This document shows positions 3,721-21,171 of a stretch of DNA of 28,484 nucleotides, in pieces. The DNA comes from a virus. Lineage: Duplodnaviria > Heunggongvirae > Uroviricota > Caudoviricetes. The notes beneath the pieces were generated by a model. It was not told the origin of the DNA, ran no database searches, and saw nothing but the letters and a program-made list of their open reading frames with translations. Where the stretch lies: the IMG/VR virus record IMGVR_UViG_3300009614_000107. One strand, 5' to 3'. The translations under genes and the position numbers were made by a program. The first letter of the stretch is position 1. Every line of letters starts with the position of its first letter.

Positions 3721-3822
3721 GGTGGCTTCAAGTTTTGTTCAGCCACCCTTTACTTAACTTTACTTTACAGGACTTTACTCTACTCGACATTACTTAACAG
3801 CACATTACTATACTTGAGCAAG
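3721..3822 (-). ncRNA. Stand-alone pentamer-repeat guide-like RNA C with own promoter and 3' hairpin
   Basis: Minus strand TTGCT-(NN-WGT)x13 (pentamers 3752-3816)-AAAGG, then stem GGTGGCT/AGCCACC (3721-3727 and 3741-3747); promoter AATATTTATAAA at 3844-3855. 5' end estimated. Confidence 0.8.
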
Positions 3823-3843
3823 ATATGTTTTTCTTTTAACTTG

Positions 3844-3855
3844 TTTATAAATATT
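3844..3855 (-). promoter_or_regulatory. AATATTTATAAA promoter of guide-like RNA C
   Basis: Same motif about 23 nt upstream of the TTGCT leader, with no ORF following. Confidence 0.75.
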
Positions 3856-3928
3856 ATGATTTAAAAACTAACTAAGATGGGCTTTGCTTGATTGTGGTTA
3901 CAGAAAAACTGGAACCTATAGCGTTAGG

Positions 3929-4015
3929 CTACTTTTTCGCCTTTCGCCTATTATACGACTTGACATGAACGACCTTATTTTTTTGGTGTCGTGTGTACGA
4001 TTTTACGTGTGGCAT
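3929..4015 (-). CDS. 28-aa basic peptide, putative virion DNA-binding protein (missed by ORF track)
   Basis: MPHVKSYTRHQKNKVVHVKSYNRRKAKK*; internal HVKSY repeat; same AGGAGGGTAG RBS (4023-4032) as the capsid-like genes. Confidence 0.75.
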   Translation of the reverse strand: MPHVKSYTRHQKNKVVHVKSYNRRKAKK

Positions 4016-4064
4016 TTATTTTCTACCCTCCTTTACTAGCTGTCAGTCTAAATTAGAAACTTGT

Positions 4065-4080
4065 GGGGGATTTCTCCCCC
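4065..4080 (-). terminator. GC-rich hairpin downstream of capsid-like gene
   Basis: GGGGGA-TTTC-TCCCCC inverted repeat; role as terminator or processing site is inferred. Confidence 0.35.
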
Positions 4081-4100
4081 CGTCAGGCTATCTTTCAAGA

Positions 4101-4307
4101 TTAAATCTTGTCAGATGACCTTGCAGCAACTGATATACCTACAAGTAAAGCTATAAGTACCAATATGCTGGCCATTACGTTGGCAGCCGATGTGAGGTTA
4201 GTTGAAGCAGCAGCCATAAATCCTAATGTAGCGATTAGAAGTACTACAGCTATAGCTACGACATATCCCAATATTGGTCGAGTTGTATCGAGCAGACCTT
4301 CTCCCAT
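4101..4307 (-). CDS. Putative major capsid protein of spindle-shaped virus type, copy 2
   Basis: 68 aa, two long hydrophobic helices joined by a short polar loop with an NLT sequon; RBS AGGAGGGTAG at 4315-4324. Confidence 0.65.
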   Translation of the reverse strand: MGEGLLDTTRPILGYVVAIAVVLLIATLGFMAAASTNLTSAANVMASILVLIALLVGISVAARSSDKI

Positions 4308-4410
4308 TTTTTAACTACCCTCCTAACGACTGTAAGGTGATGCGTTGTTGCCTCACCTGGGAACGATGTCTGGAGTTCTTCACTCCAGAGAGATTAATGG
4401 CTTGACAGGC

Positions 4411-4617
4411 TTAAACCTTGTCTGCGCTGCGTGCAGCGACAGAGATCCCTATGAGTAGGGCAATCAATACCAAGATGCTCGCCATTACGTTGGCAGCAGA
4501 GGTAAGGTTTGCACTTGTTGCAGCCATAAAGCCTAGGGTAGCGATTAGCAGTACCACGGCAATTGCCACAACATAACCCAATATGGGACGTGTAGTGTCA
4601 AGTAGACCTTCACCCAA
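4411..4617 (-). CDS. Putative major capsid protein of spindle-shaped virus type, copy 1
   Basis: 63/68 aa identical to 4101-4307; TTG start; RBS AGGAGGGTAG at 4625-4634; TTTATAT box near 4698-4704. Confidence 0.65.
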   Translation of the reverse strand: MGEGLLDTTRPILGYVVAIAVVLLIATLGFMAATSANLTSAANVMASILVLIALLIGISVAARSADKV

Positions 4618-4763
4618 AACTATTCTACCCTCCTAACAGGCTGAGATGATAGGGGCATCACTTTTGATAGCTCCAAGCGTAGAATATGCGCTTTGAAATA
4701 TAAACTTATCCACTTTGATTCGAGCTGATCTCGTTTCTAAATGCTCACACTATAAAAAAAGAG

Positions 4764-4886
4764 CTAATTCTTACGATTAACAACATCAGCAAATCTCTGT
4801 CGATGTGCTCCCAATAGTTGTGAGCAGGGATACTTGTTACACTTCTGTTTCTTACAGTACTCTCCATAGAAATCCGATGAGGACAT
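4764..4886 (-). CDS. Small hypothetical protein (40 aa)
   Basis: Manual ORF MSSSDFYGEYCKKQKCNKYPC..., starts right after the stop of the upstream ORF. Confidence 0.4.
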   Translation of the reverse strand: MSSSDFYGEYCKKQKCNKYPCSQLLGAHRQRFADVVNRKN

Positions 4887-4887
4887 A

Positions 4888-5058
4888 TTACACTTCATCT
4901 CGTTCAACCTTCTTAGCAACTGTTTTCTGACCGTCTACATTCTTGGCGTGTTTTCTCCAGCACTCCATACAACATTCACCAACATCTGGAATGTAGATTG
5001 AAAAAACATTTAGTGGTTTATGGCATTGAGCACATTCATTCTTCGTCTTTTTCATCAT
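4888..5058 (-). CDS. Small Zn-finger-like protein (56 aa)
   Basis: Manual ORF MMKKTKNECAQCHKP...CCMECWRKH; two CxxC motifs. Confidence 0.6.
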   Translation of the reverse strand: MMKKTKNECAQCHKPLNVFSIYIPDVGECCMECWRKHAKNVDGQKTVAKKVERDEV

Positions 5059-5248
5059 CTTCTATTACACCGTATTCTTTTGCTATTGGACACTTACTAC
5101 AGTCTGCTTCTGGTGCTAAAACATTGCCCAATCTATCCCAAAATGGGACACATTCACAGGGATACCTTGAATTATCAAATTTTAATGAACAGATTGGGGT
5201 CATCCACTTGAACTCATCTTTTTTTACATTGCTATGTTTTCGAACCAA
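5036..5248 (-). CDS. Small Cys-rich hypothetical protein
   Basis: ORF track; tiles with neighbours. Confidence 0.55.
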   Translation of the reverse strand: MVRKHSNVKKDEFKWMTPICSLKFDNSRYPCECVPFWDRLGNVLAPEADCSKCPIAKEYGVIEDDEKDEE

Positions 5249-5253
5249 GTGTG

Positions 5254-5541
5254 TTACTCCCTATAATCATCATATATCTCTAGGCTATTATCTTTGGCAT
5301 TAACTATGATTTCTCCGAACTTTTTGGAGAGTTCAAGCAACTCCTGGAGATTACGAATCTCGATGTAGAGTTCCCACCAGTACATTTTCTCTCTTATACC
5401 TTCGTTATTGAGTATTAAATCTGACCTTCCATCATTGTCAATGAATACATAAAATCCATTGTATTGTGAGAGATCCCAGTCTGGTTTTATCGGGGACCAC
5501 GTTCCACCCCAACTTGACGTTCTATAAATTCTGAATTTCAT
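5254..5541 (-). CDS. Hypothetical viral protein
   Basis: ORF track; ends ...LEIYDDYRE; tiles with neighbours. Confidence 0.7.
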   Translation of the reverse strand: MKFRIYRTSSWGGTWSPIKPDWDLSQYNGFYVFIDNDGRSDLILNNEGIREKMYWWELYIEIRNLQELLELSKKFGEIIVNAKDNSLEIYDDYRE

Positions 5542-5547
5542 TATGTA

Positions 5548-5841
5548 TCAATCCTTAGTTTGACCAAATGTCTTTTCTTTGTATTCTAATATATATTTGA
5601 GAAAGTCGGGTGTACCCTCACCAGCAATAACATATCGCCTCTCCCAACGGTTATCGTTGTCCTTGTTCTGCACCCAATTACCACGAATCATACCAAGGAT
5701 TTCTAACTCACCAAGTGCTTTAGCGATATGTTGTTTTGGCTGAGTGGGAAATTCTAATGCTAGTTTAGACAAAGTGAAGCCATTCTCCTTGTCTGTGTTA
5801 ATCTTCAAAAGAACATCATATTCAAACTTCATTATAATCAC
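5548..5841 (-). CDS. Winged-HTH-like protein
   Basis: TLSKLA...IAKALGELEILGMI followed by a beta-hairpin (RWERRYVI). Confidence 0.55.
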   Translation of the reverse strand: MIIMKFEYDVLLKINTDKENGFTLSKLALEFPTQPKQHIAKALGELEILGMIRGNWVQNKDNDNRWERRYVIAGEGTPDFLKYILEYKEKTFGQTKD

Positions 5842-6215
5842 CTATTAGATATCACCCAAGTCCCGTTTTCTGTGTTTATGTGGTAGTCGGGATCCCACAC
5901 GTATGCCACGTTGCTGTTTTCCCTGATTATGTAGAACGAGAGGTTGTAGTAGTACACTTTCCCATCGGAGAAGTGGGTGCGGAATTCACCAAGGGTTGCA
6001 ATCTTTACGGTGACTGTCGGTGCTTTAACGTAGGCATCGACTGCACCGAGTTCCTTGGAAAGGGACTTCATCGTTTCTACCCGTATGTCCCAGTACCTGT
6101 CCCAGTTCTCTTGGCTAGTCTTAAACTGGTAAGCGAAGAACACCACGACAGCGAATATGGCGCATATGGCTAGAATGGAGAATATGAACTTCGTGTTGTT
6201 TTCGTTTTTAGACAT
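5838..6215 (-). CDS. Membrane-anchored hypothetical protein
   Basis: N-terminal TM helix; NLS and NGT sequons. Confidence 0.7.
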   Translation of the reverse strand: MSKNENNTKFIFSILAICAIFAVVVFFAYQFKTSQENWDRYWDIRVETMKSLSKELGAVDAYVKAPTVTVKIATLGEFRTHFSDGKVYYYNLSFYIIRENSNVAYVWDPDYHINTENGTWVISNR

Positions 6216-6249
6216 CAGATCACCAGTCTACATATATCTTCAAAATTCA

Positions 6250-6516
6250 TTATGGACCACCATACTTCAAACTTTCGTAGAATGAATATGCTACATTTAT
6301 TGTTATAATTATAACAGCCACTAATATTAATCCCCAGAATGCAAAGTCCCAGAAACTTGGCATAACATTTGGTGGAACAGCATCTATATTAGATAAAAAT
6401 GCCTGTGGATACAGGTAAGCGTGAATGCTCATAATTCCAAGAATTACCAGCATAGCTAGAAGTGGCAGTGGATTTGGGGGCAAGTTGCCTCTGTGTTTGG
6501 TGATTTTAAATCTCAT
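6250..6516 (-). CDS. Two-TM membrane protein
   Basis: Two hydrophobic segments; ATGA overlap with upstream gene. Confidence 0.65.
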   Translation of the reverse strand: MRFKITKHRGNLPPNPLPLLAMLVILGIMSIHAYLYPQAFLSNIDAVPPNVMPSFWDFAFWGLILVAVIIITINVAYSFYESLKYGGP

Positions 6517-7199
6517 TTCTGGTCAACAACATTTAGCTTGACATAATCCCAATTCCAATAGGTGACATTGAATGTTGTGCCACCAAAACTGAACTCATAG
6601 TTCAATGGTAGCATAGCATTTGATGGAAGATCGTGTGTAAGTGTGAAAAATAGCCAGTTGCCTTTATTATCATTCAGATGAATGTCTTGACCAGTGTAAC
6701 TAAGTGTGATATCTTTATATTGTGTCTGTTCGAGTCCTCTGCCTAGAACTATGGTTGTAATCTCGACTGGTTGGATATCTGGGACTTTGACTACAATAAG
6801 GGCAACATAATCTGAGTTCCAGGCTCTAACCTTGAAAACGTATCCACAGAACGTGACGTTTGTAATGGGTGTTGAGACAGGATCGATTGGGTTACGTATT
6901 GCCTCATCGTGATCACCACAATATAGATACAGGTATTTTCCTTCATATTTCATATAGACGGTTCTGTATCGAACCATACCCATATCTCGACCAAGCATTA
7001 TGTCAGACTCTGTAACTATGTTCTGCCTTGAGGTGATTTCTGTGCTCTGTGGGGGAACAAGTTCCCATCCAGTGGAGAACGAAACTGCTGGGATGTAGAC
7101 TTTTGTTGGATTGACTGGGAATTGTGTACCAAGTAAGAACGAACCAACCATAACTATGGAAATTCCAATAACCAGAAGGACACGTTCTGCGCCATTCAT
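6513..7199 (-). CDS. Membrane-anchored beta-rich surface protein with internal duplication
   Basis: N-terminal TM; repeated motif NVTFCGYVFKVRAWNSDYVALIVV / EFSFGGTTFNVTYWNWDYVKLNVV; promoter at 7229-7240. Confidence 0.7.
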   Translation of the reverse strand: MNGAERVLLVIGISIVMVGSFLLGTQFPVNPTKVYIPAVSFSTGWELVPPQSTEITSRQNIVTESDIMLGRDMGMVRYRTVYMKYEGKYLYLYCGDHDEAIRNPIDPVSTPITNVTFCGYVFKVRAWNSDYVALIVVKVPDIQPVEITTIVLGRGLEQTQYKDITLSYTGQDIHLNDNKGNWLFFTLTHDLPSNAMLPLNYEFSFGGTTFNVTYWNWDYVKLNVVDQK

Positions 7200-7244
7200 T
7201 CTTATCCCTGAATTAATAGGTGCGATTATTTATAAATATTCTGA

Positions 7245-7472
7245 TTAAGGACGTTTTGGAATCTCCTTCCCTGTGATTATGTAGTTTATCAACTCTGCCT
7301 TGTCTCTGGCCGTAGTGAGTTGAAATACATAACCTAAATCCATAGAGAATGGAAGTTCATCCATTTCTCTTACAAGTTCGTTGAACATAAACTCTGCTCT
7401 TTGGACAATTTGATCCTTCGAGCCATAGTTGCTTTTTACCATCTTTTCTGCAAATGCTTGTTTGCTTTTCAT
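7245..7472 (-). CDS. Hypothetical protein
   Basis: ORF track; abuts upstream gene. Confidence 0.65.
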   Translation of the reverse strand: MKSKQAFAEKMVKSNYGSKDQIVQRAEFMFNELVREMDELPFSMDLGYVFQLTTARDKAELINYIITGKEIPKRP

Positions 7473-7775
7473 TTAAACCACCTGTTTTTTCTTCCTTTGT
7501 TCTTGTGTAAGTCTCTTGCAAAAGTTTACGATATCTGTAAGGCAATCTTCTTCAAACCAAATATCACTGAGTATTCTCATCCTCTCTCCATCTGCTTTTG
7601 CTGTAGACCTGAAAGCATATTTTCTCCATTGTGGGAACCAAGAAATTACACCCAACCAATCATTTGTTTGTGTGTTGGTTACGTGCCATACCTGAGTTTT
7701 TGGCTTATCTTCTTTTGGATCACGCCAGAAGTAAACCCATTTTCCATCATATCTATATTCAAATTTATTTTCCAA
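7473..7775 (-). CDS. Hypothetical protein
   Basis: ORF 7473-7823; likely start is TTG at 7775, just after the upstream stop, with a GAGG RBS. Confidence 0.6.
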   Translation of the reverse strand: MENKFEYRYDGKWVYFWRDPKEDKPKTQVWHVTNTQTNDWLGVISWFPQWRKYAFRSTAKADGERMRILSDIWFEEDCLTDIVNFCKRLTQEQRKKKQVV

Positions 7776-7776
7776 T

Positions 7777-8448
7777 TTATGAAACCTCTTCTTTTTTATC
7801 TTCCAGTTCAGGTAGACGGTCAACAGATAGTTGATCCTTGAGTTTTTCTAAACCAAGAGCCTTGAGTCTTTCTTCGATTAGGTGTGAGACTTCGTTCTTT
7901 GCCTCAATGACTGTCTGATCCATCTGCTCTGTGAAACTCTTTTTAATGTATGGAATATTTGAAGCGATTTGCATCCTAATCATATCTATCTGTTGCAGGA
8001 TTTCTTCTCTATCTTTCTTGCCGATGTTTGGCTTTGCTAAGATCTCCTTGATTTTTGTGATGAACTCGTTTGTTTCAGATGCTGTATCCTCTAATTTTTT
8101 CTTGAATTCCTCATCAAACTGGACACGTTTGCTCTCAAATGGTGGTGCTTCAATATTTTCACCATTAAACCACTCGATTGTGCAGGGTACTCCAGTTGTG
8201 TTGAGCGAAGTGATTGCGTCTGCCCACTGTGAGGGTGACATATAGACACTTATTAGAGGTGGAGAGATTGGGAAATAATCATCGTGGTAGATATCTCTAT
8301 TCAGTATGGCTCTTGAAATTTCGAGTTTTATGAATGCTTGCTGCTGGATACTGCTACCGAACAGGTTTTGTTTGCCAGATGATGTGCCTCTGACGATATC
8401 TATCATACCGAATGATGGGTGTTTCTTTTGATTGGCAAACATTTTCAT
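7777..8448 (-). CDS. Conserved-looking viral hypothetical protein with C-terminal coiled coil
   Basis: 223 aa; HPSFGMI...LFGSSI...MSPSQWA...GVPCTI pattern that I recognise from phage hypothetical proteins. Confidence 0.75.
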   Translation of the reverse strand: MKMFANQKKHPSFGMIDIVRGTSSGKQNLFGSSIQQQAFIKLEISRAILNRDIYHDDYFPISPPLISVYMSPSQWADAITSLNTTGVPCTIEWFNGENIEAPPFESKRVQFDEEFKKKLEDTASETNEFITKIKEILAKPNIGKKDREEILQQIDMIRMQIASNIPYIKKSFTEQMDQTVIEAKNEVSHLIEERLKALGLEKLKDQLSVDRLPELEDKKEEVS

Positions 8449-8717
8449 TTTTTCACCTTAAATATATTATCGAGTTCATCTGCACATTTATTGCGTATAT
8501 CCTCATCGTGCGGAATATAGTAATTTTTTTTATCTAAAGGATCATAAGTAGTTACACGTTTTCGCCAATTGTCTGGTAGAATATATATTTTTATTAATTG
8601 TGGGCAGTTGGATAGTGGTTTTTTAAGTATGCAACCATCTTCATCTTGACTACTTTCAGCACGATAATAGTTTATACATTTTTCACAGATTTCAGCCATA
8701 TCATCTATATCTATCAT
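8445..8717 (-). CDS. Cys-containing hypothetical protein
   Basis: CEKC...C...C; ATGA overlaps. Confidence 0.6.
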   Translation of the reverse strand: MIDIDDMAEICEKCINYYRAESSQDEDGCILKKPLSNCPQLIKIYILPDNWRKRVTTYDPLDKKNYYIPHDEDIRNKCADELDNIFKVKK

Positions 8718-8860
8718 TCTTTATTTTCCTCCTGATGATACTCAGGATGTGATGCTCGGCAATGTAATTCCACGAGATCCATACCACCCGTTTTATAACC
8801 CCAAGAAGCACCTTGAAGTTCTAAACAATGTTTATAATCTGGACATTTTTTGCAGATCAT
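8714..8860 (-). CDS. Small hypothetical protein (48 aa)
   Basis: Manual ORF MICKKCPDYKHC...; ATGA overlaps at both ends. Confidence 0.55.
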   Translation of the reverse strand: MICKKCPDYKHCLELQGASWGYKTGGMDLVELHCRASHPEYHQEENKE

Positions 8861-9114
8861 ATTGTGAACTTCCTGTGTAAAGTCTCATAGCTGGGTGTGT
8901 GACTGTGAACATTTCTGCACTCCGTGTGACACCAGCAATCAGAATCTGAGCATAGTCTTTTTGTGCCAAAACACCCTGGAATTTCTTTCTCCTTCTTTGG
9001 ATTAGGATAAAGTCTGCAATCGTTTCCATCATCTATCTCGAATGAGCAATGCAGAACGCCACCTGACGGACAGGATGGACACACAAACCCATTTCTATAA
9101 CAGTTCTCAGGCAT
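8857..9114 (-). CDS. Cys-rich hypothetical protein
   Basis: ORF track; multiple Cys clusters. Confidence 0.6.
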   Translation of the reverse strand: MPENCYRNGFVCPSCPSGGVLHCSFEIDDGNDCRLYPNPKKEKEIPGCFGTKRLCSDSDCWCHTECRNVHSHTPSYETLHRKFTI

Positions 9115-9352
9115 TTTTAACCAACTCTCTTTTCTTTGTCTTTGGATCGTAAATCTCTTTATCTGTTGCTCCCTCTGAGATCATAGTCCCATCATATAGA
9201 ACTTTCCAGCCTCTGCCACAGTTTGGGCAATCCCAATATCCATAGGGATATGCCCATTTAGCATATCCATTATCATTTTTGAAATTTTGAAGATGCTTCA
9301 CTCTGTCTACCAGTTTGCCTTTACCACAGTGAGGACACTTCAATGCACCCAC
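9107..9352 (-). CDS. Zn-ribbon protein
   Basis: CPHCG...CPNCG. Confidence 0.7.
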   Translation of the reverse strand: MGALKCPHCGKGKLVDRVKHLQNFKNDNGYAKWAYPYGYWDCPNCGRGWKVLYDGTMISEGATDKEIYDPKTKKRELVKNA

Positions 9353-9495
9353 ACCTCATATCCACAGTGGTGGCAAACAAACCATTGCCTGTCCATACCG
9401 TCAAAGACGGGAAATTCTGTCTCTGTTGATTTGCACTCAGGACATTGTGCAACAACTTTGCCGTCATCTTTTTTAACATATTTTAGGTCAACCAT
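9340..9495 (-). CDS. Zn-ribbon protein (51 aa)
   Basis: Manual ORF MVDLKYVKK...CPECK...CHHCGY. Confidence 0.6.
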   Translation of the reverse strand: MVDLKYVKKDDGKVVAQCPECKSTETEFPVFDGMDRQWFVCHHCGYEVWVH

Positions 9496-9796
9496 TTCTA
9501 TCACTTTCCATCATCTGGAGATATTTATATCCACCTTTTGGAAGTGTTTTACGATCTTCTGCACGTTGATTACATTGGCCATCTATCAAGCCTGGACGAA
9601 GCGTTATTCTGTAATCATTCCATAATTTGCCATATTTAAAGGCTTGAATCATCTCGTCAATCATAATATGAAATTCTGGGATTGATGTTTTTTGTTGATA
9701 GTTTATCTCGTGATAAAAATTACAAAGTGCTGACCACGATGTGTTTTTATTGCGTGTTGTCAAGTAACAGGCGTAAATTTGATCTGGTGGCATCAT
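9488..9796 (-). CDS. Hypothetical protein
   Basis: ORF track; tiles with neighbours. Confidence 0.55.
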   Translation of the reverse strand: MMPPDQIYACYLTTRNKNTSWSALCNFYHEINYQQKTSIPEFHIMIDEMIQAFKYGKLWNDYRITLRPGLIDGQCNQRAEDRKTLPKGGYKYLQMMESDRNG

Positions 9797-10125
9797 TTGG
9801 GATCCCTGTTTTCTAGTTTGTAAACTTCCGCTTCGTCTATACCAAACTCAAAGTCTTTTGAATCGTCAACTCTGCAAAGTGTGCAGTAATCATCCCAATC
9901 CATGCAGACCATTTGTCCATTTTCACCCATAAACCAACCTTCCTTGTTAGTCCAGCCTATGAAAAATGGGCATCTTACTTTTTCAAAACCATTTTTGACC
10001 ATATATTGTCTATATTCTTCTCTGTAGTTGGCATCTTCATCTGATGTTATCTTGGAAATATCTATATCTTTAATGCCTTTGACTTCTCGAAGCCAACCAG
10101 AGTAAGTATAGTTTACAGGTTTCAT
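9793..10125 (-). CDS. Hypothetical protein
   Basis: ORF track; GAGGATGA RBS-like sequence upstream. Confidence 0.65.
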   Translation of the reverse strand: MKPVNYTYSGWLREVKGIKDIDISKITSDEDANYREEYRQYMVKNGFEKVRCPFFIGWTNKEGWFMGENGQMVCMDWDDYCTLCRVDDSKDFEFGIDEAEVYKLENRDPK

Positions 10126-10135
10126 TTTATCATCC

Positions 10136-10372
10136 TCAAATTGATTTTATGAGAGAAGTTCCTTTTCTCTCGGACTCAGGTGGTGTCAGTTCATTAAAAC
10201 ATTTTGGAAATATCCAAAAAACTTCACCAATACAAAGAGCAAAGTTGACACCCCACATAGCAACCATAATCCAATTTTGTGTGATAGTGATATTAATGAC
10301 TAAGAATGATACTGCCATTGATATATGTAATGGTATCCAGAACATCTCGAAATATGCAAATTTATGTCCCAT
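10136..10372 (-). CDS. Two-TM membrane protein
   Basis: Two hydrophobic segments. Confidence 0.6.
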   Translation of the reverse strand: MGHKFAYFEMFWIPLHISMAVSFLVINITITQNWIMVAMWGVNFALCIGEVFWIFPKCFNELTPPESERKGTSLIKSI

Positions 10373-10805
10373 TGAGTTTCGCCTGTTCCTCTTGAATTAT
10401 TCCAAACAACTTCTCCTCATCATCCTTAGAGATTACGTCTGCTAGATGAAGAAGATATCTGAAATTATCGATGAGATTCCAGAGATCATTACCGTAATTA
10501 TCTGGGTCGAGTGCCTTCTGCTTGTGTTCGTCAAAGTTCTCCATAGAGTCACGCCAGTAGATTGGGAATGTCATTATGTGGCTTCTAAGTTGCTCGTTGT
10601 CCTTTATTCTATGAGAAACATTCCAGGCTAGACTGTGCTCTTTAAGTGCCTTGATTTCATCTGGGAATAGGTCACAAGCACCCTTGAGTTTTCCTAGAAA
10701 GACGTTAATATCTCCGAGTTCGGATGAACCAAGTGAGTGCATTGAGTATAGGATAGCATAGGTGTACACTTCACTGTTCATTTCTAGGATTTTTTTAAGA
10801 CTCAA
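10362..10805 (-). CDS. Hypothetical protein
   Basis: ORF track; short overlaps with neighbours. Confidence 0.65.
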   Translation of the reverse strand: MSLKKILEMNSEVYTYAILYSMHSLGSSELGDINVFLGKLKGACDLFPDEIKALKEHSLAWNVSHRIKDNEQLRSHIMTFPIYWRDSMENFDEHKQKALDPDNYGNDLWNLIDNFRYLLHLADVISKDDEEKLFGIIQEEQAKLNGT

Positions 10806-11139
10806 TTTTTTTTACCTTCTTACTATCTATTAAGATAAATATTATAGCAGATATACTACCAAAAACAACTACCCAGTTAATAAGAGGTGTGCCATCAACT
10901 CCTATTGGATAGTTAAATATATTCATATATTCACCCATAAGATTTTTAGACCAATCGAGATAACCAAGTGAATATGAAGGAACTAAGATATAAAATGGTA
11001 AACCAACTATTTCCATTAAAGCAATAAAGAAAGAGATACCTAAGAATACGAAGGTAAAAATTACTGGTATAAAAACGATTTTTTGTGATAGTCTGGTGCT
11101 CTTCCACCAATTACTTACAAATTCAAGGCTCATTTCCAT
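10795..11139 (-). CDS. Membrane protein
   Basis: Two to three hydrophobic segments. Confidence 0.6.
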   Translation of the reverse strand: MEMSLEFVSNWWKSTRLSQKIVFIPVIFTFVFLGISFFIALMEIVGLPFYILVPSYSLGYLDWSKNLMGEYMNIFNYPIGVDGTPLINWVVVFGSISAIIFILIDSKKVKKIES

Positions 11140-13236: not shown

Positions 13237-13388
13237 TGATATTCACACTCACAATCGTCCTCTGGCTGACCACAATCAGCACAGATATATTGGTCTTTTT
13301 CTGCATCTAAGTGTAAGAACGAGCCACACCAACATCTCATTCCAGCAAGTTTGTCAAGTTCGGTTAGTTCTATTTTTTGTTTATCCAA
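13233..13388 (-). CDS. Small Zn-binding protein (51 aa)
   Basis: Manual ORF (TTG) MDKQKIEL...CWCG...CADCG...CEC. Confidence 0.55.
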   Translation of the reverse strand: MDKQKIELTELDKLAGMRCWCGSFLHLDAEKDQYICADCGQPEDDCECEYH

Positions 13389-13391
13389 ATT

Positions 13392-13850
13392 TTACCACTC
13401 CGAAATTTTTACAATGTCACGAATCTGCATTATCATCTTTCCGAGCTTGTCCTGACCTTTAAAACCCCAGTATGGATGGCTTGTGTTTTCGTGGAGAACA
13501 GCATCACCAGTGAGTACAAGTTGCTCCTTTAAGCCTTCGTTCTTTACAAACTTTGCCTTTAATCCAGCCATCATAACTGTGTCCTTGACCCTATCCCAAT
13601 CTTTGCGAATTTTCTCGACTGAGAAGGATTGGCCAGCTTTCATAGCTGAAAATGGTGTGGGTGAGTTGATTATCCACTGAACTAGTTCAGGATCTGTGTA
13701 TTTTGCACTTTGATAGAAATGTTCTACTGAACCATATTTTCTTGGTGTTTTATCTAGAGACACTGGGTTGACAACCGTTATTTCAACTGGGTAGAGATTA
13801 GATAGGAAATTGTACTTCTCAGACCTATAGTTGAAATAGATTTCGTTCAT
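13392..13850 (-). CDS. NADAR (YbiA-like) family protein
   Basis: FLSNLYP, SVEHFYQSAKY, DWDRVK..VM...LKAKF, LVLTGDAVLHE, YWG, LGKMIMQIR; promoter at 13879-13890. Confidence 0.9.
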   Translation of the reverse strand: MNEIYFNYRSEKYNFLSNLYPVEITVVNPVSLDKTPRKYGSVEHFYQSAKYTDPELVQWIINSPTPFSAMKAGQSFSVEKIRKDWDRVKDTVMMAGLKAKFVKNEGLKEQLVLTGDAVLHENTSHPYWGFKGQDKLGKMIMQIRDIVKISEW

Positions 13851-13894
13851 TTAGTTCGTTATGTATAAGGTGTTTGTGTTTATAAATATTCTGG

Positions 13895-14203
13895 TTATGG
13901 ACGAATTAAGTTCTCAAACCTATGTGTAACAGTACTCAGAGGAGCACCCATACTTGAACCCGTTCCAACCCAACCACGATGAGGCGTTTCTACGGCTATA
14001 TCGTAGAGCATTCCTTGGTAGGCTGGACTTGACATTTTTCTCTGCCAATCGACAAGTTCACCCCACTCGATTAGGGCTACTCTTATTGGGTGCTGTTTTG
14101 AGGCTATATATCCAGGTTGGCTTCTTGTTATAAGACCAAATCTCACAACATTTCTTCTTCTCTTTTTGAGTGATTTTCGAGTCTCGACCCAGATAGTGAC
14201 CAA
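13895..14203 (-). CDS. Hypothetical protein
   Basis: ORF track; first gene of the leftward arm at a divergent intergenic region. Confidence 0.5.
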   Translation of the reverse strand: MVTIWVETRKSLKKRRRNVVRFGLITRSQPGYIASKQHPIRVALIEWGELVDWQRKMSSPAYQGMLYDIAVETPHRGWVGTGSSMGAPLSTVTHRFENLIRP

Positions 14204-14310
14204 GGATGTTCTATATGATAATTCAATATTAGACGTTTAAACTTTGTGTATATGCCGTTATGATAATAAAGATTTAATAGCCGTTTATAAATACATATGA
14301 TAGAAATAGC

Positions 14311-14811
14311 TTGTCATCTTTAAGAAAAAAGACTTGGGATGACTTTACTAATTACCTCAGAGAACAATGGACAGGTTTTCCACCAGAAATCCAAGAGGGA
14401 GCAAGTAGAGTTTACAGACGAGTTGGTCCAGTTGCTAATAAGACAGCACAGTACTATGCAAACTCTGGAAAAGAACAAGGCAAGAGAGCAATTATGGAAA
14501 ATCTTAAAAAAGTTCCTTTGAGAACACCATATACTGGTCCTAATGCTTTCAAACCAAAACCAAAACCCGATCCAAATAAAAGAAAGGGAAGTTGGTGGGA
14601 TATAGTACTTTCTCCGAAAGAACAGGATGATATTAAAGCAGCTAGAGAAAAATTAAGAAATGGTTATAATTCAGTTACAGATACAAGTACAGTAAATCAG
14701 ACTGTTGTTGTGAATAAACCAACAAGAAAATCTAGTAAAAATGTAGCTGTTTCTAAAAGTTCAATTCCAAGTTATTTACAGCCAGATGATAAGAAAAAGG
14801 TGAAGAAGTAA
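14311..14811 (+). CDS. Basic hypothetical protein
   Basis: 166 aa, Lys/Pro-rich; TTTATAAA at 14284-14291. Confidence 0.7.
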   Translation: MSSLRKKTWDDFTNYLREQWTGFPPEIQEGASRVYRRVGPVANKTAQYYANSGKEQGKRAIMENLKKVPLRTPYTGPNAFKPKPKPDPNKRKGSWWDIVLSPKEQDDIKAAREKLRNGYNSVTDTSTVNQTVVVNKPTRKSSKNVAVSKSSIPSYLQPDDKKKVKK

Positions 14812-14812
14812 A

Positions 14813-15505
14813 ATGTCATTCTTTGGATTAGGTCCATTCGAACTAATACTAGGTGCTGGTGCAATTGTCGCTGTTGGAGCAGTTGTTTGGACAATGCGTG
14901 GCTCTGGTGGCAAAATCAGAAAAACAGTCACTTTCTTGATGCCTGGAGAAAGGAGAGGTGTAGAACTTAGGGTTACTAAAGAAACCGACTATGGGCTATA
15001 CACAAAGAAATCAGAGGGTGTAAGTAGAAGATTCATTAAATTGGCTCGTGGATATGCCATTAAGAGAGGAAGTAGCAATGTTGTTACTTTCTTCGGTCTT
15101 GAAGGCACTATCTTCACTGCTGCACCTGGAAAAATCTCTATGAGGAGAAACTTGGCTGAAACGCTCAAGTTCCTCTGGGGAGAACCTTTCTACGATCAAA
15201 TTCCAGAACCTGAGAGGAAGATTGTTGAGGCTGGCACTATTGGTGTAACAGTTGAAGTTGATCCATCGGACTTAGAGCAATTAGGTATCACTGAGGATGA
15301 TGAGTCTGAAGAAGGCAGAAAGATCCTAAGAATGTCCTCTGTTGATGTGAATGCTGAGACAGATGCACAAGTTCTAGAGACAATTGCAAATGCCAACAAG
15401 CCAAAGGTAGAGAATAGAAGGGAACTATATCAGATGCTTATTGGTATGGGTCTTGGCTTCGGACTTTGCCTATTCCTTGCATCTCAGGGCTGGATTAAGA
15501 TATGA
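14813..15505 (+). CDS. Membrane protein with N- and C-terminal TM helices (putative morphogenesis module)
   Basis: Terminal hydrophobic helices; in an operon with the ATPase. Confidence 0.75.
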   Translation: MSFFGLGPFELILGAGAIVAVGAVVWTMRGSGGKIRKTVTFLMPGERRGVELRVTKETDYGLYTKKSEGVSRRFIKLARGYAIKRGSSNVVTFFGLEGTIFTAAPGKISMRRNLAETLKFLWGEPFYDQIPEPERKIVEAGTIGVTVEVDPSDLEQLGITEDDESEEGRKILRMSSVDVNAETDAQVLETIANANKPKVENRRELYQMLIGMGLGFGLCLFLASQGWIKI

Positions 15506-15765
15506 CCGAAAAAAGAAAGTTTGTTGATATTTTAAAGAATATCAATCCTTCATATCACATTAATTTGTTCATTCGTTGCTTGATACCAACACTATCAATT
15601 GTACTAGCAATCGCAATTATGCTTATTGCTATACCATCATCAGTAACAGATATATTTATGTTTGATTTGTCATATGTACAGTTCCTAGCAAGAATACTAG
15701 TTATAATCTTTATGTATAATATTGGTAACTTCATCATAAGAGAAATAGTCTTAGGAGTAACTTAA
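15502..15765 (+). CDS. Two-TM membrane protein
   Basis: Hydrophobic; ATGA overlap. Confidence 0.65.
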   Translation: MTEKRKFVDILKNINPSYHINLFIRCLIPTLSIVLAIAIMLIAIPSSVTDIFMFDLSYVQFLARILVIIFMYNIGNFIIREIVLGVT

Positions 15766-15767
15766 AA

Positions 15768-16166
15768 ATGTCTGCTGAAGATATGGGTCCACCGCCAGAT
15801 ATGGTCGGTCAGAGTCTAGCACCACAACTTGGTACAGACTCTATGGACTTAGGTATGGGCAAGACGGATATGCGTAGACTTACGATAATTCCGAGAGAAC
15901 TGCTTATGCCTGTTATGTATGGAGAGATCAGGTCACAGAAAAGCCAGACTTGGGTGACTGTTCTTGATGTCATAAAGAATTGGTCTGTGGCCATTGGTGG
16001 CAGAGGACGTAGAGACATCATCCGTATGGAACAGGTTTCCAGAGGTGGTGGTGGTGTCAACGTTGAGGCAGAGATAGAGGCTAACAAGCCTAACTGGGTT
16101 GCCAGAAACGTTTACGACAGAGACTGGAAGGATACCAAGCTCAGGGAAGCTGGGGAAATCGTCTAA
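15768..16166 (+). CDS. Hypothetical protein
   Basis: 132 aa; GGAG RBS. Confidence 0.75.
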   Translation: MSAEDMGPPPDMVGQSLAPQLGTDSMDLGMGKTDMRRLTIIPRELLMPVMYGEIRSQKSQTWVTVLDVIKNWSVAIGGRGRRDIIRMEQVSRGGGGVNVEAEIEANKPNWVARNVYDRDWKDTKLREAGEIV

Positions 16167-16177
16167 GGTGAAATCAC

Positions 16178-16414
16178 TTGAAATGCCCAAAATGTGGTTC
16201 TGATATGATCAAATATGAATGTCCAGTCTGTGGTTACATATCCAATACTTGGATCAAAGTCCTCAAACTAATAAAAGAATTGCCAAATAATGTTGGCAAA
16301 AAGGGTGGTAGAGATATTATACAATGCCATATATGGAATGATGAAGAGGACAAATCTATTTATGATAGAGATTGGAAATCCGACAAACCCAAGGAAGCTG
16401 GGGAGATTGTTTAG
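16178..16414 (+). CDS. Zn-ribbon protein, partial paralog of 15768-16166
   Basis: CPKCG...CPVCG then RDII...YDRDWK...EAGEIV; GGTGA RBS. Confidence 0.65.
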   Translation: MKCPKCGSDMIKYECPVCGYISNTWIKVLKLIKELPNNVGKKGGRDIIQCHIWNDEEDKSIYDRDWKSDKPKEAGEIV

Positions 16415-16534
16415 ACAACTGGTGAGACTGTCAAGCACAAACACAGTCATTTCTGATAATTTTTTGGTTCCTTTCTTTTTCCTGATTATAATAATATTTG
16501 TGATTGATTGGTTATCGTGGAGGGATACTAAGAG

Positions 16535-17302
16535 TTGGCACAAAACACAAGAGAACAAAATAGAGAAGCAGTAGCCAAGAAGTACAGTCTGCCAGATGCA
16601 GACATTCGTGATACAGTAACTATTTCACAGTTACTTTACAGACAAATTGAGAGATGTAACCAGGCTGGTTCGAGTAATGAAAATCTGAACTTTGAGGGAA
16701 CAGTTGATGTCCTTTTCCAGATGGTTCCAAACCACGTTAGACAGTCTGTTGTTGGTCGTGTAAAAGAGTATAAACAAACCACGGAGAAACCAGTCTACAG
16801 ATACAATGCTGGCACACCGATTGGATCTCCAGAGCACCCAGTAAGATTGCCAGACGGGACAATTTGGAGTCCGATTATGGAGAAGTCTGAATTCATAGAC
16901 TATAGGTTGCTCTTCAACATCATAATGCAGGAACTTGAAAATTCTAAGATTACTTGGCGTTATGATTCAATGACTATGGAGCTCGGAAAAGTAGATGTTG
17001 TTGAAGTTGAAATTCCAATCGAGACTCAGGAGAAAGCCAAAATATATCTAGAGAAACTTATCGAAGAAGATAAGAAGGCTGGATATGATTACGCAGAAAT
17101 CAGTGCAGAAAGTGCATATTACAATCTATGTAAGAAGATAACACCTGAGATTCCTCCACCATCACCTGTGTTCAAGGAAACTAACGCAGACTTTGATGTA
17201 GATGATACTGAGGATACAAAGGAGGGAACACAGGCTCTTCCTGAAGCAGAAGAGGGAGAAGAAGTAGAGGGAGAAGGTGAGGGAGAAGAAGATGAGTCGT
17301 AG
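16535..17302 (+). CDS. Hypothetical protein with acidic C-terminal tail
   Basis: 255 aa; GGAGG RBS; E/G-rich tail. Confidence 0.75.
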   Translation: MAQNTREQNREAVAKKYSLPDADIRDTVTISQLLYRQIERCNQAGSSNENLNFEGTVDVLFQMVPNHVRQSVVGRVKEYKQTTEKPVYRYNAGTPIGSPEHPVRLPDGTIWSPIMEKSEFIDYRLLFNIIMQELENSKITWRYDSMTMELGKVDVVEVEIPIETQEKAKIYLEKLIEEDKKAGYDYAEISAESAYYNLCKKITPEIPPPSPVFKETNADFDVDDTEDTKEGTQALPEAEEGEEVEGEGEGEEDES

Positions 17303-18542
17303 CAATAAATCTCTTGTAGATGTCGCAAAAATCAAAGATGATAGGTCTAAGAAGAAAAAAGAGAAAACATCAGATCACGCTATAGATGTTCTCTCGACTC
17401 CTGGCACGACAGAATATGTTGAAAATCATAAGCCAAAAGAGGAACTAAAAACTCCAGACCAATTATTTCCGTCAAAGTACAAAAACCTAAGACCAGGGGC
17501 TAATGTTCTCGAAGAGGGTATTCAAAATTGGAATGGATTTAAAGTTCCTGTGTCTGGTGGAAAAACAGCAGAGTTCTTCAATCTGATTGAGAGCAGGAGA
17601 AAGAAAAACCAGTCGTGTATGATTATTATCACTGGTGATCCAGGTGGCGGTAAAACTTACGCTGCCCTCAGACTTGGAGAAATTTTCGACTCTCGATTTA
17701 ATGTTGAAGTTACTCCATACGATGAGCCTGGAAGATCACAGGTTACTTTCGGCAGAAAGCAACTTATGCACTTAATCGGAAATGACACTCCACTACAGAG
17801 AGAGCAAGTGATAGTCATAGATGAAGCTCAGTTTGCTATGGGTTCAAGACGCTGGTACGAAGATGTACAGAAAGACCTGATAGAGCAGATTGAAGCTGTA
17901 CGTTCCAGAGGCTTTGTGATAATTATTGTTTCGCTACACCTAAACCTTCTGGACAATATTATCAGACGTTACGTCCTAACCTTTATGATTCATATGGAGG
18001 ATAGAGGACGTGGAGTCGTTTACAGACTTTATACTCCCAGATTCGAATCTGAGATGAGGAAGAAGAGGCTTGGTTCCATTCAGTTGAATTTGCCGAACTA
18101 TGAGTACTGTAAACACCCAGACTGTTTGAGATGCCCATACCTCTATCCAGAGGATCCCAAAAAAGAGTGCATTCTTTTGAGAGCAACCTATGAGAGAAGC
18201 AAGAAGGCTTTCATCGGTAACAAGAACATAGAGAAAGAGGCACAACACGAAGCAAGGGAGAGAAAGAGAAGCGGTGCTCCACCAGTGGCAAGGCAACTAG
18301 AGAAGGCAACAGCCAAGATTACACAGGATATTGAGAAGGTTGCCCAGAGAGAAACCGCAGAGGCAGAGATAGCCAACAAAATTATAGATCATCAGGACGA
18401 ATTAAGGGTGGACGAGCGTTCTGGAGCCTACGAAGCCAGTTCAGCCCAGGAAATCCTGAACAAGTACTATAGTCTTGTAATCAGTCGTGAGAGAACGAAG
18501 AGAATCCTCAAAATAATTCAAAAAAGGCTAAAATCTCGTTAA
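17292..18542 (+). CDS. P-loop ATPase (Zot/AAA-like; putative packaging or assembly ATPase)
   Basis: Walker A IIITGDPGGGKT, Walker B VIVIDEAQ, Cys cluster CKHPDCLRC; likely start ATG 17292 (track start 17277). Confidence 0.85.
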   Translation: MSRSNKSLVDVAKIKDDRSKKKKEKTSDHAIDVLSTPGTTEYVENHKPKEELKTPDQLFPSKYKNLRPGANVLEEGIQNWNGFKVPVSGGKTAEFFNLIESRRKKNQSCMIIITGDPGGGKTYAALRLGEIFDSRFNVEVTPYDEPGRSQVTFGRKQLMHLIGNDTPLQREQVIVIDEAQFAMGSRRWYEDVQKDLIEQIEAVRSRGFVIIIVSLHLNLLDNIIRRYVLTFMIHMEDRGRGVVYRLYTPRFESEMRKKRLGSIQLNLPNYEYCKHPDCLRCPYLYPEDPKKECILLRATYERSKKAFIGNKNIEKEAQHEARERKRSGAPPVARQLEKATAKITQDIEKVAQRETAEAEIANKIIDHQDELRVDERSGAYEASSAQEILNKYYSLVISRERTKRILKIIQKRLKSR

Positions 18543-18544
18543 AA

Positions 18545-18800
18545 TACGAAATTTCCAGCCCTAATTTTTGGCATCCCCCTGTCACGGAAAGCTAAGTTTG
18601 GCTATTAATGATCCGTAACCCCCAGAGCCCCTAGGGGCGATTTTCGGCAGACTATTTGGCGCAATAAAAGTTTATATTTTATTGGGGGGGTATATAGGGT
18701 GGGGGCATCCCCCCAGGGCGAATAAAATTAAATATACTTCCGTTGGGGAAACGGGGCAGAAATAAAAGAGATCGGGATCTAGGGTGTATGGGCATAGAAC
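18545..18800. other. Non-coding G/C-run and palindrome-rich region (candidate origin or packaging signal)
   Basis: GGCATCCCCC at 18570 and 18704, palindrome GCCCCTAGGGGC at 18627-18638, inverted repeat CAATAAAA/TTTTATTG near 18662-18684, long G runs; function inferred. Confidence 0.35.
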
Positions 18801-18840
18801 AAAGTTATAGTACCAGAGAACAATGTTGTAGGTGTTGGAA

Positions 18841-19005
18841 ATGACGAAAGGAGTAGCATTGGGAAAGTATGACTGCCAACTGTGTGAGCATTATGGCGGT
18901 TCCTGTGAGAATACGTACAATAATCCAGGCACTGTGATCTTCTGTAAAAAGCAAAGATGCCTCATAAAGAGGCGATCCAGTCCTATGAAGGGGTGGCGTT
19001 CATAA
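18841..19005 (+). CDS. Small Cys-rich protein (54 aa)
   Basis: Manual ORF MTKGVALGKYDCQLCEHYGGSC...; overlaps the next ORF. Confidence 0.35.
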   Translation: MTKGVALGKYDCQLCEHYGGSCENTYNNPGTVIFCKKQRCLIKRRSSPMKGWRS

Positions 19006-19382
19006 ACAATTATATTCCAGAGACACAGTATATCATCTTAGACGGTTCTTTGAGGAAAACGAAGCCAGAAGCTACTTTAGAGGCATCTTTTGAGAGGTTT
19101 GGGATACCCTACACGCCTCAGAAATCTATTGCAGGGACTGTATTGGTGGATATCTTCTTGGAACCAAACATTTGTGTCTTTGTTGATGGGGATTACTGGC
19201 ATAACTATCCTTTGGGTTTGGACAAGGACAAGCGTCAAACGGAGTTATTGGAGTCTTGGGGCTATAAAGTATTCAGATTCTGGGAGCACGATATATTAAA
19301 TAATCCAGATTTAATTACCCAGAAATTAATTGAGGAAAATAATATTAAAATAAATAATAACTTGGAGGAGTATTTTAATTGA
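18957..19382 (+). CDS. Vsr/DUF559-like PD-(D/E)xK endonuclease
   Basis: VDIFL...VFVDGDYWH...DK....LESWGYKVFRFWEHDI. Confidence 0.85.
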   Translation: MPHKEAIQSYEGVAFINNYIPETQYIILDGSLRKTKPEATLEASFERFGIPYTPQKSIAGTVLVDIFLEPNICVFVDGDYWHNYPLGLDKDKRQTELLESWGYKVFRFWEHDILNNPDLITQKLIEENNIKINNNLEEYFN

Positions 19383-20089
19383 ATATTCGGGGAACTAGTT
19401 TATTGGTTATTGCTATAGTATTTTCTTTGACAACTACTGTTATTAGCCAAAGCCTTGGTACACCAGGAATTATTGGTTTATTCTGGGGTATATTGCCTAA
19501 GAAAGAATTCAGGATATTATTTTTGTTAAATTTAATATCCTTGGGTTGGGGATTAATTGTTATGCAAAATTTCCTGTCCAGTACATATTCTGGAATGAAT
19601 ATTCAAAATATATCTGGGTCAACAAATAATAATTATTTGCCAGATAATACTCAGTCAGGAAATATTCAAGTTAGTAGCAGTGGTATTTCTGCCACAATTG
19701 AGAATATTATATTGGGAATTATTAAATTGCCTCAGACTGTAAAAAATATATTCCCAACGAGTATTAATTATATTGGTGAATTTATTGGGGCTGGATTATA
19801 TTCTGCTTTAGTATTTTTCGGTTTATTCGCTGTGGTGGCTGGATTATTTATTAGCCTAGCAATTTCTATTATTTATATTTCCAATTATTATTTATTGAGG
19901 AGTTTATTATATCCATATTTACCAAATATTGTTACAGTATCTAATGGGCAATATCCTATGGAATACGGAAATATTATGGCCACGACTGGACTGTCACTCT
20001 ACGTAATATATTTCCTAGGATCAATTGTTTTGACACATTTGCTGTTAAAGAGGATAGGCTTTTACAGTAGGGTACGTGGTTTAGTGTGA
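19379..20089 (+). CDS. Multi-pass membrane protein
   Basis: 236 aa, several hydrophobic segments, very AT-rich codons. Confidence 0.65.
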   Translation: MNIRGTSLLVIAIVFSLTTTVISQSLGTPGIIGLFWGILPKKEFRILFLLNLISLGWGLIVMQNFLSSTYSGMNIQNISGSTNNNYLPDNTQSGNIQVSSSGISATIENIILGIIKLPQTVKNIFPTSINYIGEFIGAGLYSALVFFGLFAVVAGLFISLAISIIYISNYYLLRSLLYPYLPNIVTVSNGQYPMEYGNIMATTGLSLYVIYFLGSIVLTHLLLKRIGFYSRVRGLV

Positions 20090-20184
20090 GCGAAAGAGAA
20101 GGTTGTGTGATATGAGCTTTGATAATTATATACTGTGGGGCAAGAGCGAAGTTTCGCTTTTCGCTCTTATCGATTTTCGCTCTT
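20088..20184. repeat. GAGCGAA/TTCGCTC motif cluster upstream of the recombinase
   Basis: GAGCGAAA 20088, AAGAGCGAA 20142, TTTCGCT 20152, TTTTCGCTCTT 20158 and 20174. Confidence 0.55.
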
Positions 20185-20202
20185 CATCAAAGGTGATATG
20201 GT

Positions 20203-21060
20203 ATGGGTGTTAGACAAGGCGGTTGGGCTCCACGTCAGCCTCTATTGAGTAAAGACGTTTTGAACGCATTGAAGGAAGATCTCATTCCATTGTGGGATGA
20301 GGGATTGAGTGCAGAAGAAATAGCAGACAGACTGGAGTTCGGTAAGTACCCATATGAAGATTTGAAAACTTATCACGTTTGGTACTATAGAAAACAATTT
20401 GGTTGTCAGAAAAGAAAGGGTGGAATTGAGAAAGGAAAGCCACGTTATAATGTCAAGCCTGATGTTATTGAACCACCAACCATTCAGGAAATTGAAGCCA
20501 AATTGAATGAAGTCTATCCACTATTGAAAAACAATGCTGGTGCAACTGACCTCAACACATTGATGGTTAGAGCATACATCTGGTTGCACAGATACAGTCC
20601 ACTGAGAAAAAGTGAGATATATGAGAGGGAACTAGGTGACTTCTACATTGATGAGAAAGCAAAAATACTAACACTTCAGAACTTTATCAGGAAAAAGAAA
20701 TTAAAGGGTAAAGCAAAAGAAGCACCTTTCCTTATCCCCTTGGATTATCCACACGTGATGGATGAAATTGTCACCTATCTTGTAAGAAGGATTGAACGTA
20801 CACAGGATTCGAGTGCCAAGGCATTTCCAATGTCGGGTTGGGTTGCCTGGAACAGAATGAAGAAAGCCTTCCCAGATATGTACCCACACTACTGGAGATT
20901 CAAATATATCACAGAGTCTGCCAGTGACCCAAACGTCCCTATTGAAGATTTACTAGCAGATACTGATCTAAATTTACTGACTTTGAGGCGTTATATGATG
21001 ACGGGTGAAAGACAACGTTTGGCTTCATTACAGAGAAGGAAACAGAGAGAACTTGTTTAA
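20203..21060 (+). CDS. Tyrosine recombinase/integrase with N-terminal HTH
   Basis: Catalytic pattern R (PLRKSEI), K, HxxR (PHYWR), Y (TLRRY); N-terminal GLSAEEIADRL; GGTGA RBS. Confidence 0.8.
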   Translation: MGVRQGGWAPRQPLLSKDVLNALKEDLIPLWDEGLSAEEIADRLEFGKYPYEDLKTYHVWYYRKQFGCQKRKGGIEKGKPRYNVKPDVIEPPTIQEIEAKLNEVYPLLKNNAGATDLNTLMVRAYIWLHRYSPLRKSEIYERELGDFYIDEKAKILTLQNFIRKKKLKGKAKEAPFLIPLDYPHVMDEIVTYLVRRIERTQDSSAKAFPMSGWVAWNRMKKAFPDMYPHYWRFKYITESASDPNVPIEDLLADTDLNLLTLRRYMMTGERQRLASLQRRKQRELV

Positions 21061-21140
21061 AGTTCTCTTGTTTCGCTTTAGTTCACACCACTGTACTATA
21101 CTATACTTAACTTTACTCGACTAAACAGTACTAAAGCAAT
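21039..21140 (-). ncRNA. Orphan pentamer-repeat guide-like RNA D with own promoter and 3' hairpin
   Basis: Minus strand TTGCT-(NN-AGT-type)x11 (21080-21134)-AAAGC; hairpin 21039-21053 / 21061-21074 spanning the recombinase stop; promoter AATATTTATAA at 21161-21171. Confidence 0.8.
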
Positions 21141-21160
21141 ATTGAAAATGCTCTAGTGAG

Positions 21161-21171
21161 TTATAAATATT
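21161..21171 (-). promoter_or_regulatory. AATATTTATAA promoter of guide-like RNA D
   Basis: Same motif about 22 nt upstream of the TTGCT leader. Confidence 0.75.

Follow-up and report, generated by a model that had tools for sequence, protein, structure and literature searches.

Putative VIPR guides lie beside mismatched copies of the genes they fit in an archaeal virus

Four guide tracts and two near-self sites

The window analyzed here, a 28,484-nt stretch of viral DNA from IMG/VR record IMGVR_UViG_3300009614_000107, is part of an archaeal virus genome of ~197 kb and carries a homolog of Vipr, the protein component of VIPR, together with four tracts that resemble the guide RNAs of that system. 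VIPR consists of Vipr and vrRNA guides whose GGY/NN repeats are read by a rule that skips 1 nt (bioRxiv 10.64898/2026.04.26.720920,.720927; PDB 36pp). In published VIPR loci an accessory gene, vap, stands beside vipr, and the guides are tandem 5-nt repeats of 9-16 units with a structured 3' tail. Two of the guides in the window, which we call C and D, each lie close to a gene of the same genome that they match at 81-82%, and near-self matches prove to be nonrandomly close to guides in other genomes as well.

The vipr gene (3104..3670, minus strand) encodes a RAMP/Cas7-like protein of 188 aa. The profile of its 34 homologs, whose G-loop residues are invariant, matches SUSP1 Vipr (PDB 36pp) with E=1.2e-17; by sequence the ORF is a stand-alone RAMP homologous to Vipr and, by that homology, the probable effector for all four guides. 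A TATA-box-like vipr promoter lies at 3698..3705 (minus), between the hairpin of guide C and the vipr start. The guide tracts are runs of AGT/TGT-NN pentamers, all on the minus strand: two arrayed guides downstream of vipr (2958..3100, with the single tracts at 2958-3027 and 3021-3100), guide C upstream of it, and guide D 17.4 kb away. A screen of 38 kb, which joined 10 kb of flank from other assemblies to the window, found no guide in the added flank beyond these four, and neither arrayed guide has a near-self match within the 38 kb in a 1-nt-skip scan; further free-standing guides may lie elsewhere in the ~197 kb. As single-sequence queries against viral contigs, the window's vipr and the recombinase discussed below found no match, nor did a strict promoter-plus-guide pattern, and the gene downstream of vipr (2328-2921) has no match in PHROG. 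With 11-13 units each, C and D are tandem 5-nt repeats of the VIPR type, and their sequence is best explained if they are vrRNA genes of the virus's own VIPR system.

Guide C (3755..3819, minus; 13 NN units) is preceded by a TATA-box-like sequence at 3844..3851 (minus), which may serve as its promoter, and ends in a predicted hairpin tail at 3721..3747 (minus), a type of tail also borne by two guides upstream of vipr in a related contig, L011. Its best 1-nt-skip match in the window, 21/26, covers 3929..3967 (minus), where a 28-aa basic ORF (3929..4015, minus) ends with its final 12 codons and stop; this ORF contains the motif HVKxY twice and is conserved in L011 and another relative, L148. Guide D (21083..21137, minus; 11 NN units) has a TATA-box-like putative promoter at 21160..21167 (minus) and is convergent with a gene (20203..21060, plus) for a tyrosine recombinase of the family that it would target. 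Its predicted 3' hairpin (21039..21074, minus) reaches into that gene, so that one arm is formed by the recombinase's own last codons. The best match of guide D, 18/22, covers 20977..21009 (plus), codons 259-269 of the recombinase. Sequence searches of Pfam, PHROG and PDB failed to identify this protein; only a fold search did, in which the top Foldseek matches of its structure model were Tre/Cre, the Tn1549 Int and XerA, consistent with a Cre/Xer fold. R135, H229, R232 and Y264 are invariant among its relatives, corresponding to the R, H-x-x-R and Y of the catalytic set, and Tyr264, which lies inside the guide D site, is the putative catalytic Tyr. A DUF559/Vsr-like endonuclease gene (18957-19382), shorter than that of L148 described below, lies 0.8 kb upstream of the recombinase and 1.7 kb from guide D.

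The initial annotation had placed C about 110 bp and D about 70 bp from their matched sites, each as a promoter-guide-hairpin cassette just past the 3' end of a gene. We measured 110 bp (from the 5' end of C) and 73 bp, and the TATA-like box, the predicted terminal hairpin and the position past the 3' end of the matched gene are borne out at both. Both guides had also been called stand-alone, which is true of D, free-standing at 17.4 kb from vipr, but not of C, an ordinary upstream guide that ends 50 bp from vipr.

Chance seldom produces such matches. When each guide was shuffled 20,000 times and its score sought within 500 bp, 3/20,000 shuffles reached the score of C and 3/20,000 that of D, and the chance sites expected over 197 kb number 0.014 for C and 0.031 for D. 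Only a skip of 1 nt is significant (skips of 0, 2 and 3 nt give at most 16 matches), and both sites are in codon register, with the wobble position as the skipped base. An assembly artefact was ruled out, because independent assemblies are identical at both loci: three over the guide C region, and L001 at guide D.

All nine mismatches of C and D are synonymous (first-position swaps in Leu or Arg codons) or conservative, and random changes of equal number keep the amino-acid meaning as well in only 6/10,000 trials for C (P=6e-4) and 2.5/100,000 for D (P=2.5e-5). Because the mismatches keep that meaning, the guides look like copies of real coding alleles, those of rivals, and not of a present self gene that later decayed. 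Their 3' ends, six units in D and three in C, match self perfectly. Since unit 4 of D and units 2, 7 and 8 of C differ both from self and from every sampled relative, the true templates probably lie outside the sample.

Near-self matches in relatives and across other genomes

Among the sampled relatives, the recombinases of L139 and L140 fit guide D at 21/22 against 18/22 for self; both have Lys where D reads Lys and this virus has Arg, and Lys is the state of the deeper-branching recombinases. A cross-targeting test among these relatives returned an above-null match for guide D only, and none of their alleles fits guide C better than self. In L011 and L148 the basic ORF likewise follows a capsid-like gene pair, and where this virus has Ala, both share the Pro that guide C reads; neither carries a guide after the ORF. 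In L148 that slot is filled by a DUF559/HNH-like (Vsr-like) endonuclease gene (6806-7606) with weak matches to homing-endonuclease PHROGs. At the position upstream of its vipr (about 8900-9030, plus) where relatives bear guides, L148 has a promoter and, after it, a long inverted repeat that lacks AGT/NN units and may be a further small RNA or a cassette emptied of its guide.

The initial annotation proposed comparing the presence of the cassette with the state of the allele in related viruses, and no strict covariation emerged. The recombinase is followed by a guide in none of its four closest relatives (0/4), and the content of that slot varies among relatives. L013 and L015 (80% nucleotide identity) share the non-matching Arg-CGN codon with this virus, L139 and L140 have the matching allele, and cassette D is absent from all of them. 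A guide combined with a matching allele occurs in none of the sampled relatives, a small sample, and the allele data fit a guide that settles only where the allele already mismatches. The sister relation of this virus and L013 in the recombinase tree is weak (support 0.42), so that the order of events cannot be read from it.

The second proposal was to examine the distances between guides and near-self matches across genomes. For each guide we took the best local 1-nt-skip match per distance bin and compared it with shuffled guides, deriving P from Gumbel fits to 30-50 shuffles; local scoring was used since a fixed 12-unit window score misses long guides. A first set comprised 107 guides from Vipr-homolog loci and AGT-pattern loci, and an independent set, scored in equal 500-bp bins, comprised at least 312 GGY-pattern guides from at least 83 unrelated loci, both among the matches listed and both including loci where the presence of a vipr gene is unconfirmed. 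In the first set, 7 matches at P<0.01 fell within 500 bp (5 without C and D), against 1, 1, 1 and 4 in the farther bins. In the independent set the corresponding counts at P<0.01 were 16/297 within 500 bp and 15/1172 at 500-2500 bp (Fisher p=8e-5), and at P<0.001 they were 11 and 4 (p=1e-5). Random placement of guides relative to near-self targets, the outcome that would have told against the annotated linkage, is therefore not what other genomes show.

The signal is strongest for lone guides, 6/39 of which (~15%) have a near-self match within 500 bp against 1/153 farther away (p=3e-4); for arrayed guides the counts are 10/258 (~4%) and 14/1019 (p=0.013). The 16 near matches come from 16 loci with different target sequences, and 8/16 read in sense and in frame within the longest local ORF (baseline 24%, p=0.035); the clear matches are sense, wobble-aligned, near the guide and spread over varied gene families. 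Mismatches in the replication set fell more often on codon position 1, but not significantly so (25 vs 18). Guides occur before and after the target gene and in both orientations, so that a position past the 3' end, as seen at C and D, does not hold as a general rule. In L173 the last guide of an array lies 32 bp from the end of the convergent gene it matches, and in L156, too, the guide beside the matched gene is the last of its array; L094 and L162 are further examples from the first set, and L055 has a weaker match in an archaeal-type lone cassette laid out like D. L011 (12487-12541) and L148 (11387-11426) each have a lone guide-like tract between a phosphoesterase-slot gene and the next gene, for which no significant match to the neighbors was found, the L148 guide being short and below the score cut-off of the main test.

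Several other loci deserve mention. The guide right after vipr in L179 (2088-2142) matches a variant of its own vipr (16/20), like published vipr-targeting guides. In L156, L159 and L170 a hammerhead-like sequence lies about 20-140 bp upstream of the last guide, which near-matches the next gene, an arrangement like that of published ribozyme-interspersed arrays. The related phages L057, L062, L065 and L117 have AGT/NN guides with tRNA-like tails, some with near-self matches 1-2 kb off (best 20/24, in L117). A Cas1-family gene (L145:2839-3987) lies 6 kb from a close Vipr homolog with guides of 15-22 units and may be of interest for guide acquisition. L306 (4754-9409) encodes a 72%-identical Vipr with about nine guides, and because the element around this locus also encodes an integrase and a D5-like primase-helicase, the Vipr clade of this virus appears to move between unrelated elements. 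L173 (CAZALZ010000057.1), with AGT/NN guides and a Vipr 60% identical to that of this virus, was binned as Gammaproteobacteria, possibly in error.

Genome setting and host

Proteins of the window recur on contigs of ~197 kb in many assemblies, and this near-constant length suggests a complete genome. The sample series probably comes from peat. Genes are densely packed in the window, GC content is 33-45%, and a TATA-like promoter motif, TTTATAAA, recurs upstream of many genes. One tRNA gene is present (25593-25674, minus). The virus also encodes a TFB-like protein (370-1341, minus; weak TFIIB repeat match) and an ARPP-1 domain protein with a C-terminal winged helix (21552-22907, minus).

Upstream of the basic ORF lie two paralogous genes for hydrophobic proteins of 68 aa (4101..4617, minus). 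Because homologs of both occur in metagenome-assembled genomes (MAGs) of Bathyarchaeia, the host is likely bathyarchaeal. Two hydrophobic paralogs followed by a small basic ORF reproduce the VP1/VP3/VP2-like layout of spindle viruses, and the 68-aa pair are likely capsid proteins of the spindle-virus type, as the 28-aa ORF is likely a VP2-like DNA-binding virion protein; by gene layout alone, the virion may be spindle-shaped. Searches of PDB, PHROG and Atlas and a fold search matched neither the 68-aa genes nor the basic ORF to capsid or VP2 proteins of spindle viruses. A holin identity for the 68-aa genes was rejected, as the weak match behind it was treated as mere hydrophobicity.

Explaining the linkage

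We favor, at a probability of about 0.5, a reading in which the guides silence kin and their linkage is kept by selection against recombinants that join a guide to a sensitive allele. Each guide would be transcribed from its own archaeal promoter and, as the homology to SUSP1 Vipr suggests, loaded into a Vipr filament that would read DNA two bases out of three. The guides would be aimed at the version of a gene carried by related viruses: for C a small basic gene of virion type, for D the catalytic end of a tyrosine recombinase. The mismatches seen in the virus's own copies, first-position Leu/Arg synonymous swaps and conservative changes, would let those copies escape. The effect may be silencing of the rival's gene or a roadblock on it, an allele exclusion without cutting. 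Because co-infecting kin recombine, a guide that became separated from the resistant allele would act against the very genome that carries it, and pairs within about 100 bp would persist as one unit. Expression, silencing of rivals, self-immunity and selection as the cause of linkage are the steps that we infer.

Several points weigh against this reading. Self-immunity must be assumed, because the 81-82% self matches pass the 80% at which the discovery paper calls targets (10.64898/2026.04.26.720920,.720927). Searches of viral and genome collections returned no perfect target for either guide. If the silenced gene makes a diffusible product, a virion protein for instance, the silencing virus could furnish it in trans and so blunt the benefit, and selection maintains linkage but leaves the guide's first arrival beside the gene unexplained. 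The non-matching allele occurs without the cassette and so was not necessarily selected by guide D. For guide C, synteny contributes to the closeness, because the capsid module lies only 2-3 kb of other genes away from vipr in L011 and L148 anyway. Across genomes, 85% of lone and 96% of arrayed guides have no near-self neighbor, and the replication matches outside the longest local ORF, half of the 16, include likely chance matches and shadow frames.

The linkage could instead be a footprint of acquisition, the guides having been written from DNA beside their insertion point, such as a rival's allele placed alongside during recombination or a former self allele since replaced. We consider such a local origin rather unlikely, and it is compatible with kin silencing. 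It would explain why the near-self signal drops sharply with distance and why the guide beside the gene is the last of its array in L156 and L173, and the hairpin arm that guide D shares with the recombinase's last codons implies that part of that cassette formed in place; moreover, the available parts of the VIPR papers do not describe how guides are acquired. The initial annotation had offered a local origin as its alternative. The randomization of mismatches disfavors a guide that was copied from today's self allele and then decayed; a rival allele may still have been the local source. The guide units that differ from self and all sampled relatives argue that the template was not this lineage's reconstructed ancestor, and the occurrence of both orientations and both sides speaks against a fixed fold-back geometry.

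Alternatively, Vipr bound to a rival allele may stall replication or recruit a nuclease, whereupon repair would copy in the resistant allele and co-convert the guide, which would spread like a free-standing homing endonuclease gene. The layout is that of the T4 seg and mob genes, which lie beside the gene cut in relatives (PMC2988022), and nuclease-free homing would account for target genes that are functionally unrelated yet adjacent to their guides; it is also the endonuclease gene of L148 that occupies the slot of guide C. Even so we think it distinctly improbable. Published Vipr represses transcription, with no cutting reported in the available text, the cassettes are noncoding RNA genes, no accessory nuclease is linked to the window's vipr, and the non-matching allele occurs without the cassette. 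Of the homing or allele-exclusion logic that the initial annotation read into the linkage, the part that holds is that the guides fit non-self alleles and are nonrandomly linked; evidence of a nuclease or of gene conversion, as homing would call for, did not emerge.

A role in cis, in which a partial match damps the virus's own recombinase and basic-protein genes, seems to us slightly more doubtful still. The self matches exceed 80%, the 3' units of both guides are perfect on self, and proximity would help if the RNA acts near its site of synthesis. Non-self alleles fit better, however, and close relatives manage without either cassette; nor would autoregulation call for mismatches that keep to the codon logic of a homologous gene, as these do. 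Finally, a coincidence of synteny and variable intergenic slots is very unlikely and largely disproved for D and the overall trend by the low local and genome-wide chance values of C and D and by replication in 83 unrelated loci among the matches listed, although it may partly explain C, a normal upstream guide with the capsid module near vipr in relatives, and draws some support from the variable slot after the recombinase and from the lone guides of L011 and L148 that match no neighbor.

Much of this system is already known: VIPR itself, the 1-nt-skip code, solo guides, kin targeting, self-mismatch and the WGT/NN variant. The present case resembles VIPR in its homologous RAMP, its 5-nt repeats of 11-13 units, its 3' tails, its guides up- and downstream of vipr and its wobble skip, and differs in the AGT/TGT-NN repeat and the archaeal host. 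The P. fulva, type III and type V guides tested in the VIPR papers have, in the available text, no self match of at least 80%, whereas C and D reach 81-82% on an adjacent gene. Noncanonical WGT/NN arrays (bioRxiv 10.64898/2026.10.21.760802) belong to the same repeat class as the AGT/TGT units and lie next to Vipr-like folds; the available text describes neither their targets nor linkage.

In the accessible part of the report on orphan vrRNAs, their scores are higher on rivals than on self, and a satellite recombinase is silenced by SUSP1 VIPR (10.64898/2026.10.15.759431). Guide D shares with these solo vrRNAs of SUSP1-family phages and F5 satellites its place away from vipr, its aim at kin, its recombinase target and a self score (18/22) below that of relatives (21/22). 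Published vipr-targeting orphans sit where vipr was deleted, and thus also in the locus of their target (10.64898/2026.10.15.759431). D works like a solo guide, but it adjoins an ordinary target gene whose copy here is intact and mismatched, and its genome has its own vipr 17.4 kb off, inside that paper's 20-kb cut-off, as C has at 50 bp, so that neither falls under the definition.

The free-standing homing endonucleases of T-even phages (SegF, SegG, SegE and MobE), known for marker exclusion, are likewise intergenic elements beside a gene attacked in relatives and act in co-infection (PMC2988022). Those are DNA-cutting proteins that bring about gene conversion, whereas here the element would be an RNA of ~100 nt with a shared, possibly distant effector and no known cutting. 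C and D thus lie, as homing elements do, beside a gene targeted in relatives whose own allele differs, and encode no nuclease. Virus-borne mini-CRISPR arrays depend on host Cas and are not known to be linked to a homolog of their target. Such arrays, as far as the accessible text goes, arm archaeal viruses with RNA guides against other viruses in inter-viral conflict (Medvedeva 2019, cited in PMC10541130), but they use contiguous spacers between repeats, unlike the gapped VIPR code. A word search of the VIPR discovery and competition papers found no treatment of guide-target linkage or homing, and a library search for VIPR and homing returned no such paper; what we add is an archaeal case and a cross-genome test of the linkage.

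The available parts of the VIPR papers leave unexplained how guides are acquired and how the owner of a kin-targeting guide stays safe after recombination. On both points our results offer a rule that can be measured: a near-match lies within 500 bp of about 15% of lone and about 4% of arrayed guides, usually in the neighboring gene. In practice, this rule may serve to find a guide's target family where databases offer no match, and the natural matched and mismatched pairs could be used to measure the mismatch tolerance of Vipr. The data suggest that such a guide is inherited together with a resistant copy of its target, the two forming a single unit. We would advance only tentatively the broader idea that a promoter-guide-hairpin cassette of ~130 bp plus a resistant allele is a minimal selfish element, one that borrows a shared Vipr and spreads by RNA-guided allele exclusion or nuclease-free homing, or else that the linkage is the footprint of an acquisition process that writes guides from DNA beside the insertion site. 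If inheritance is indeed biased, these cassettes would parallel free-standing homing endonucleases with RNA alone.

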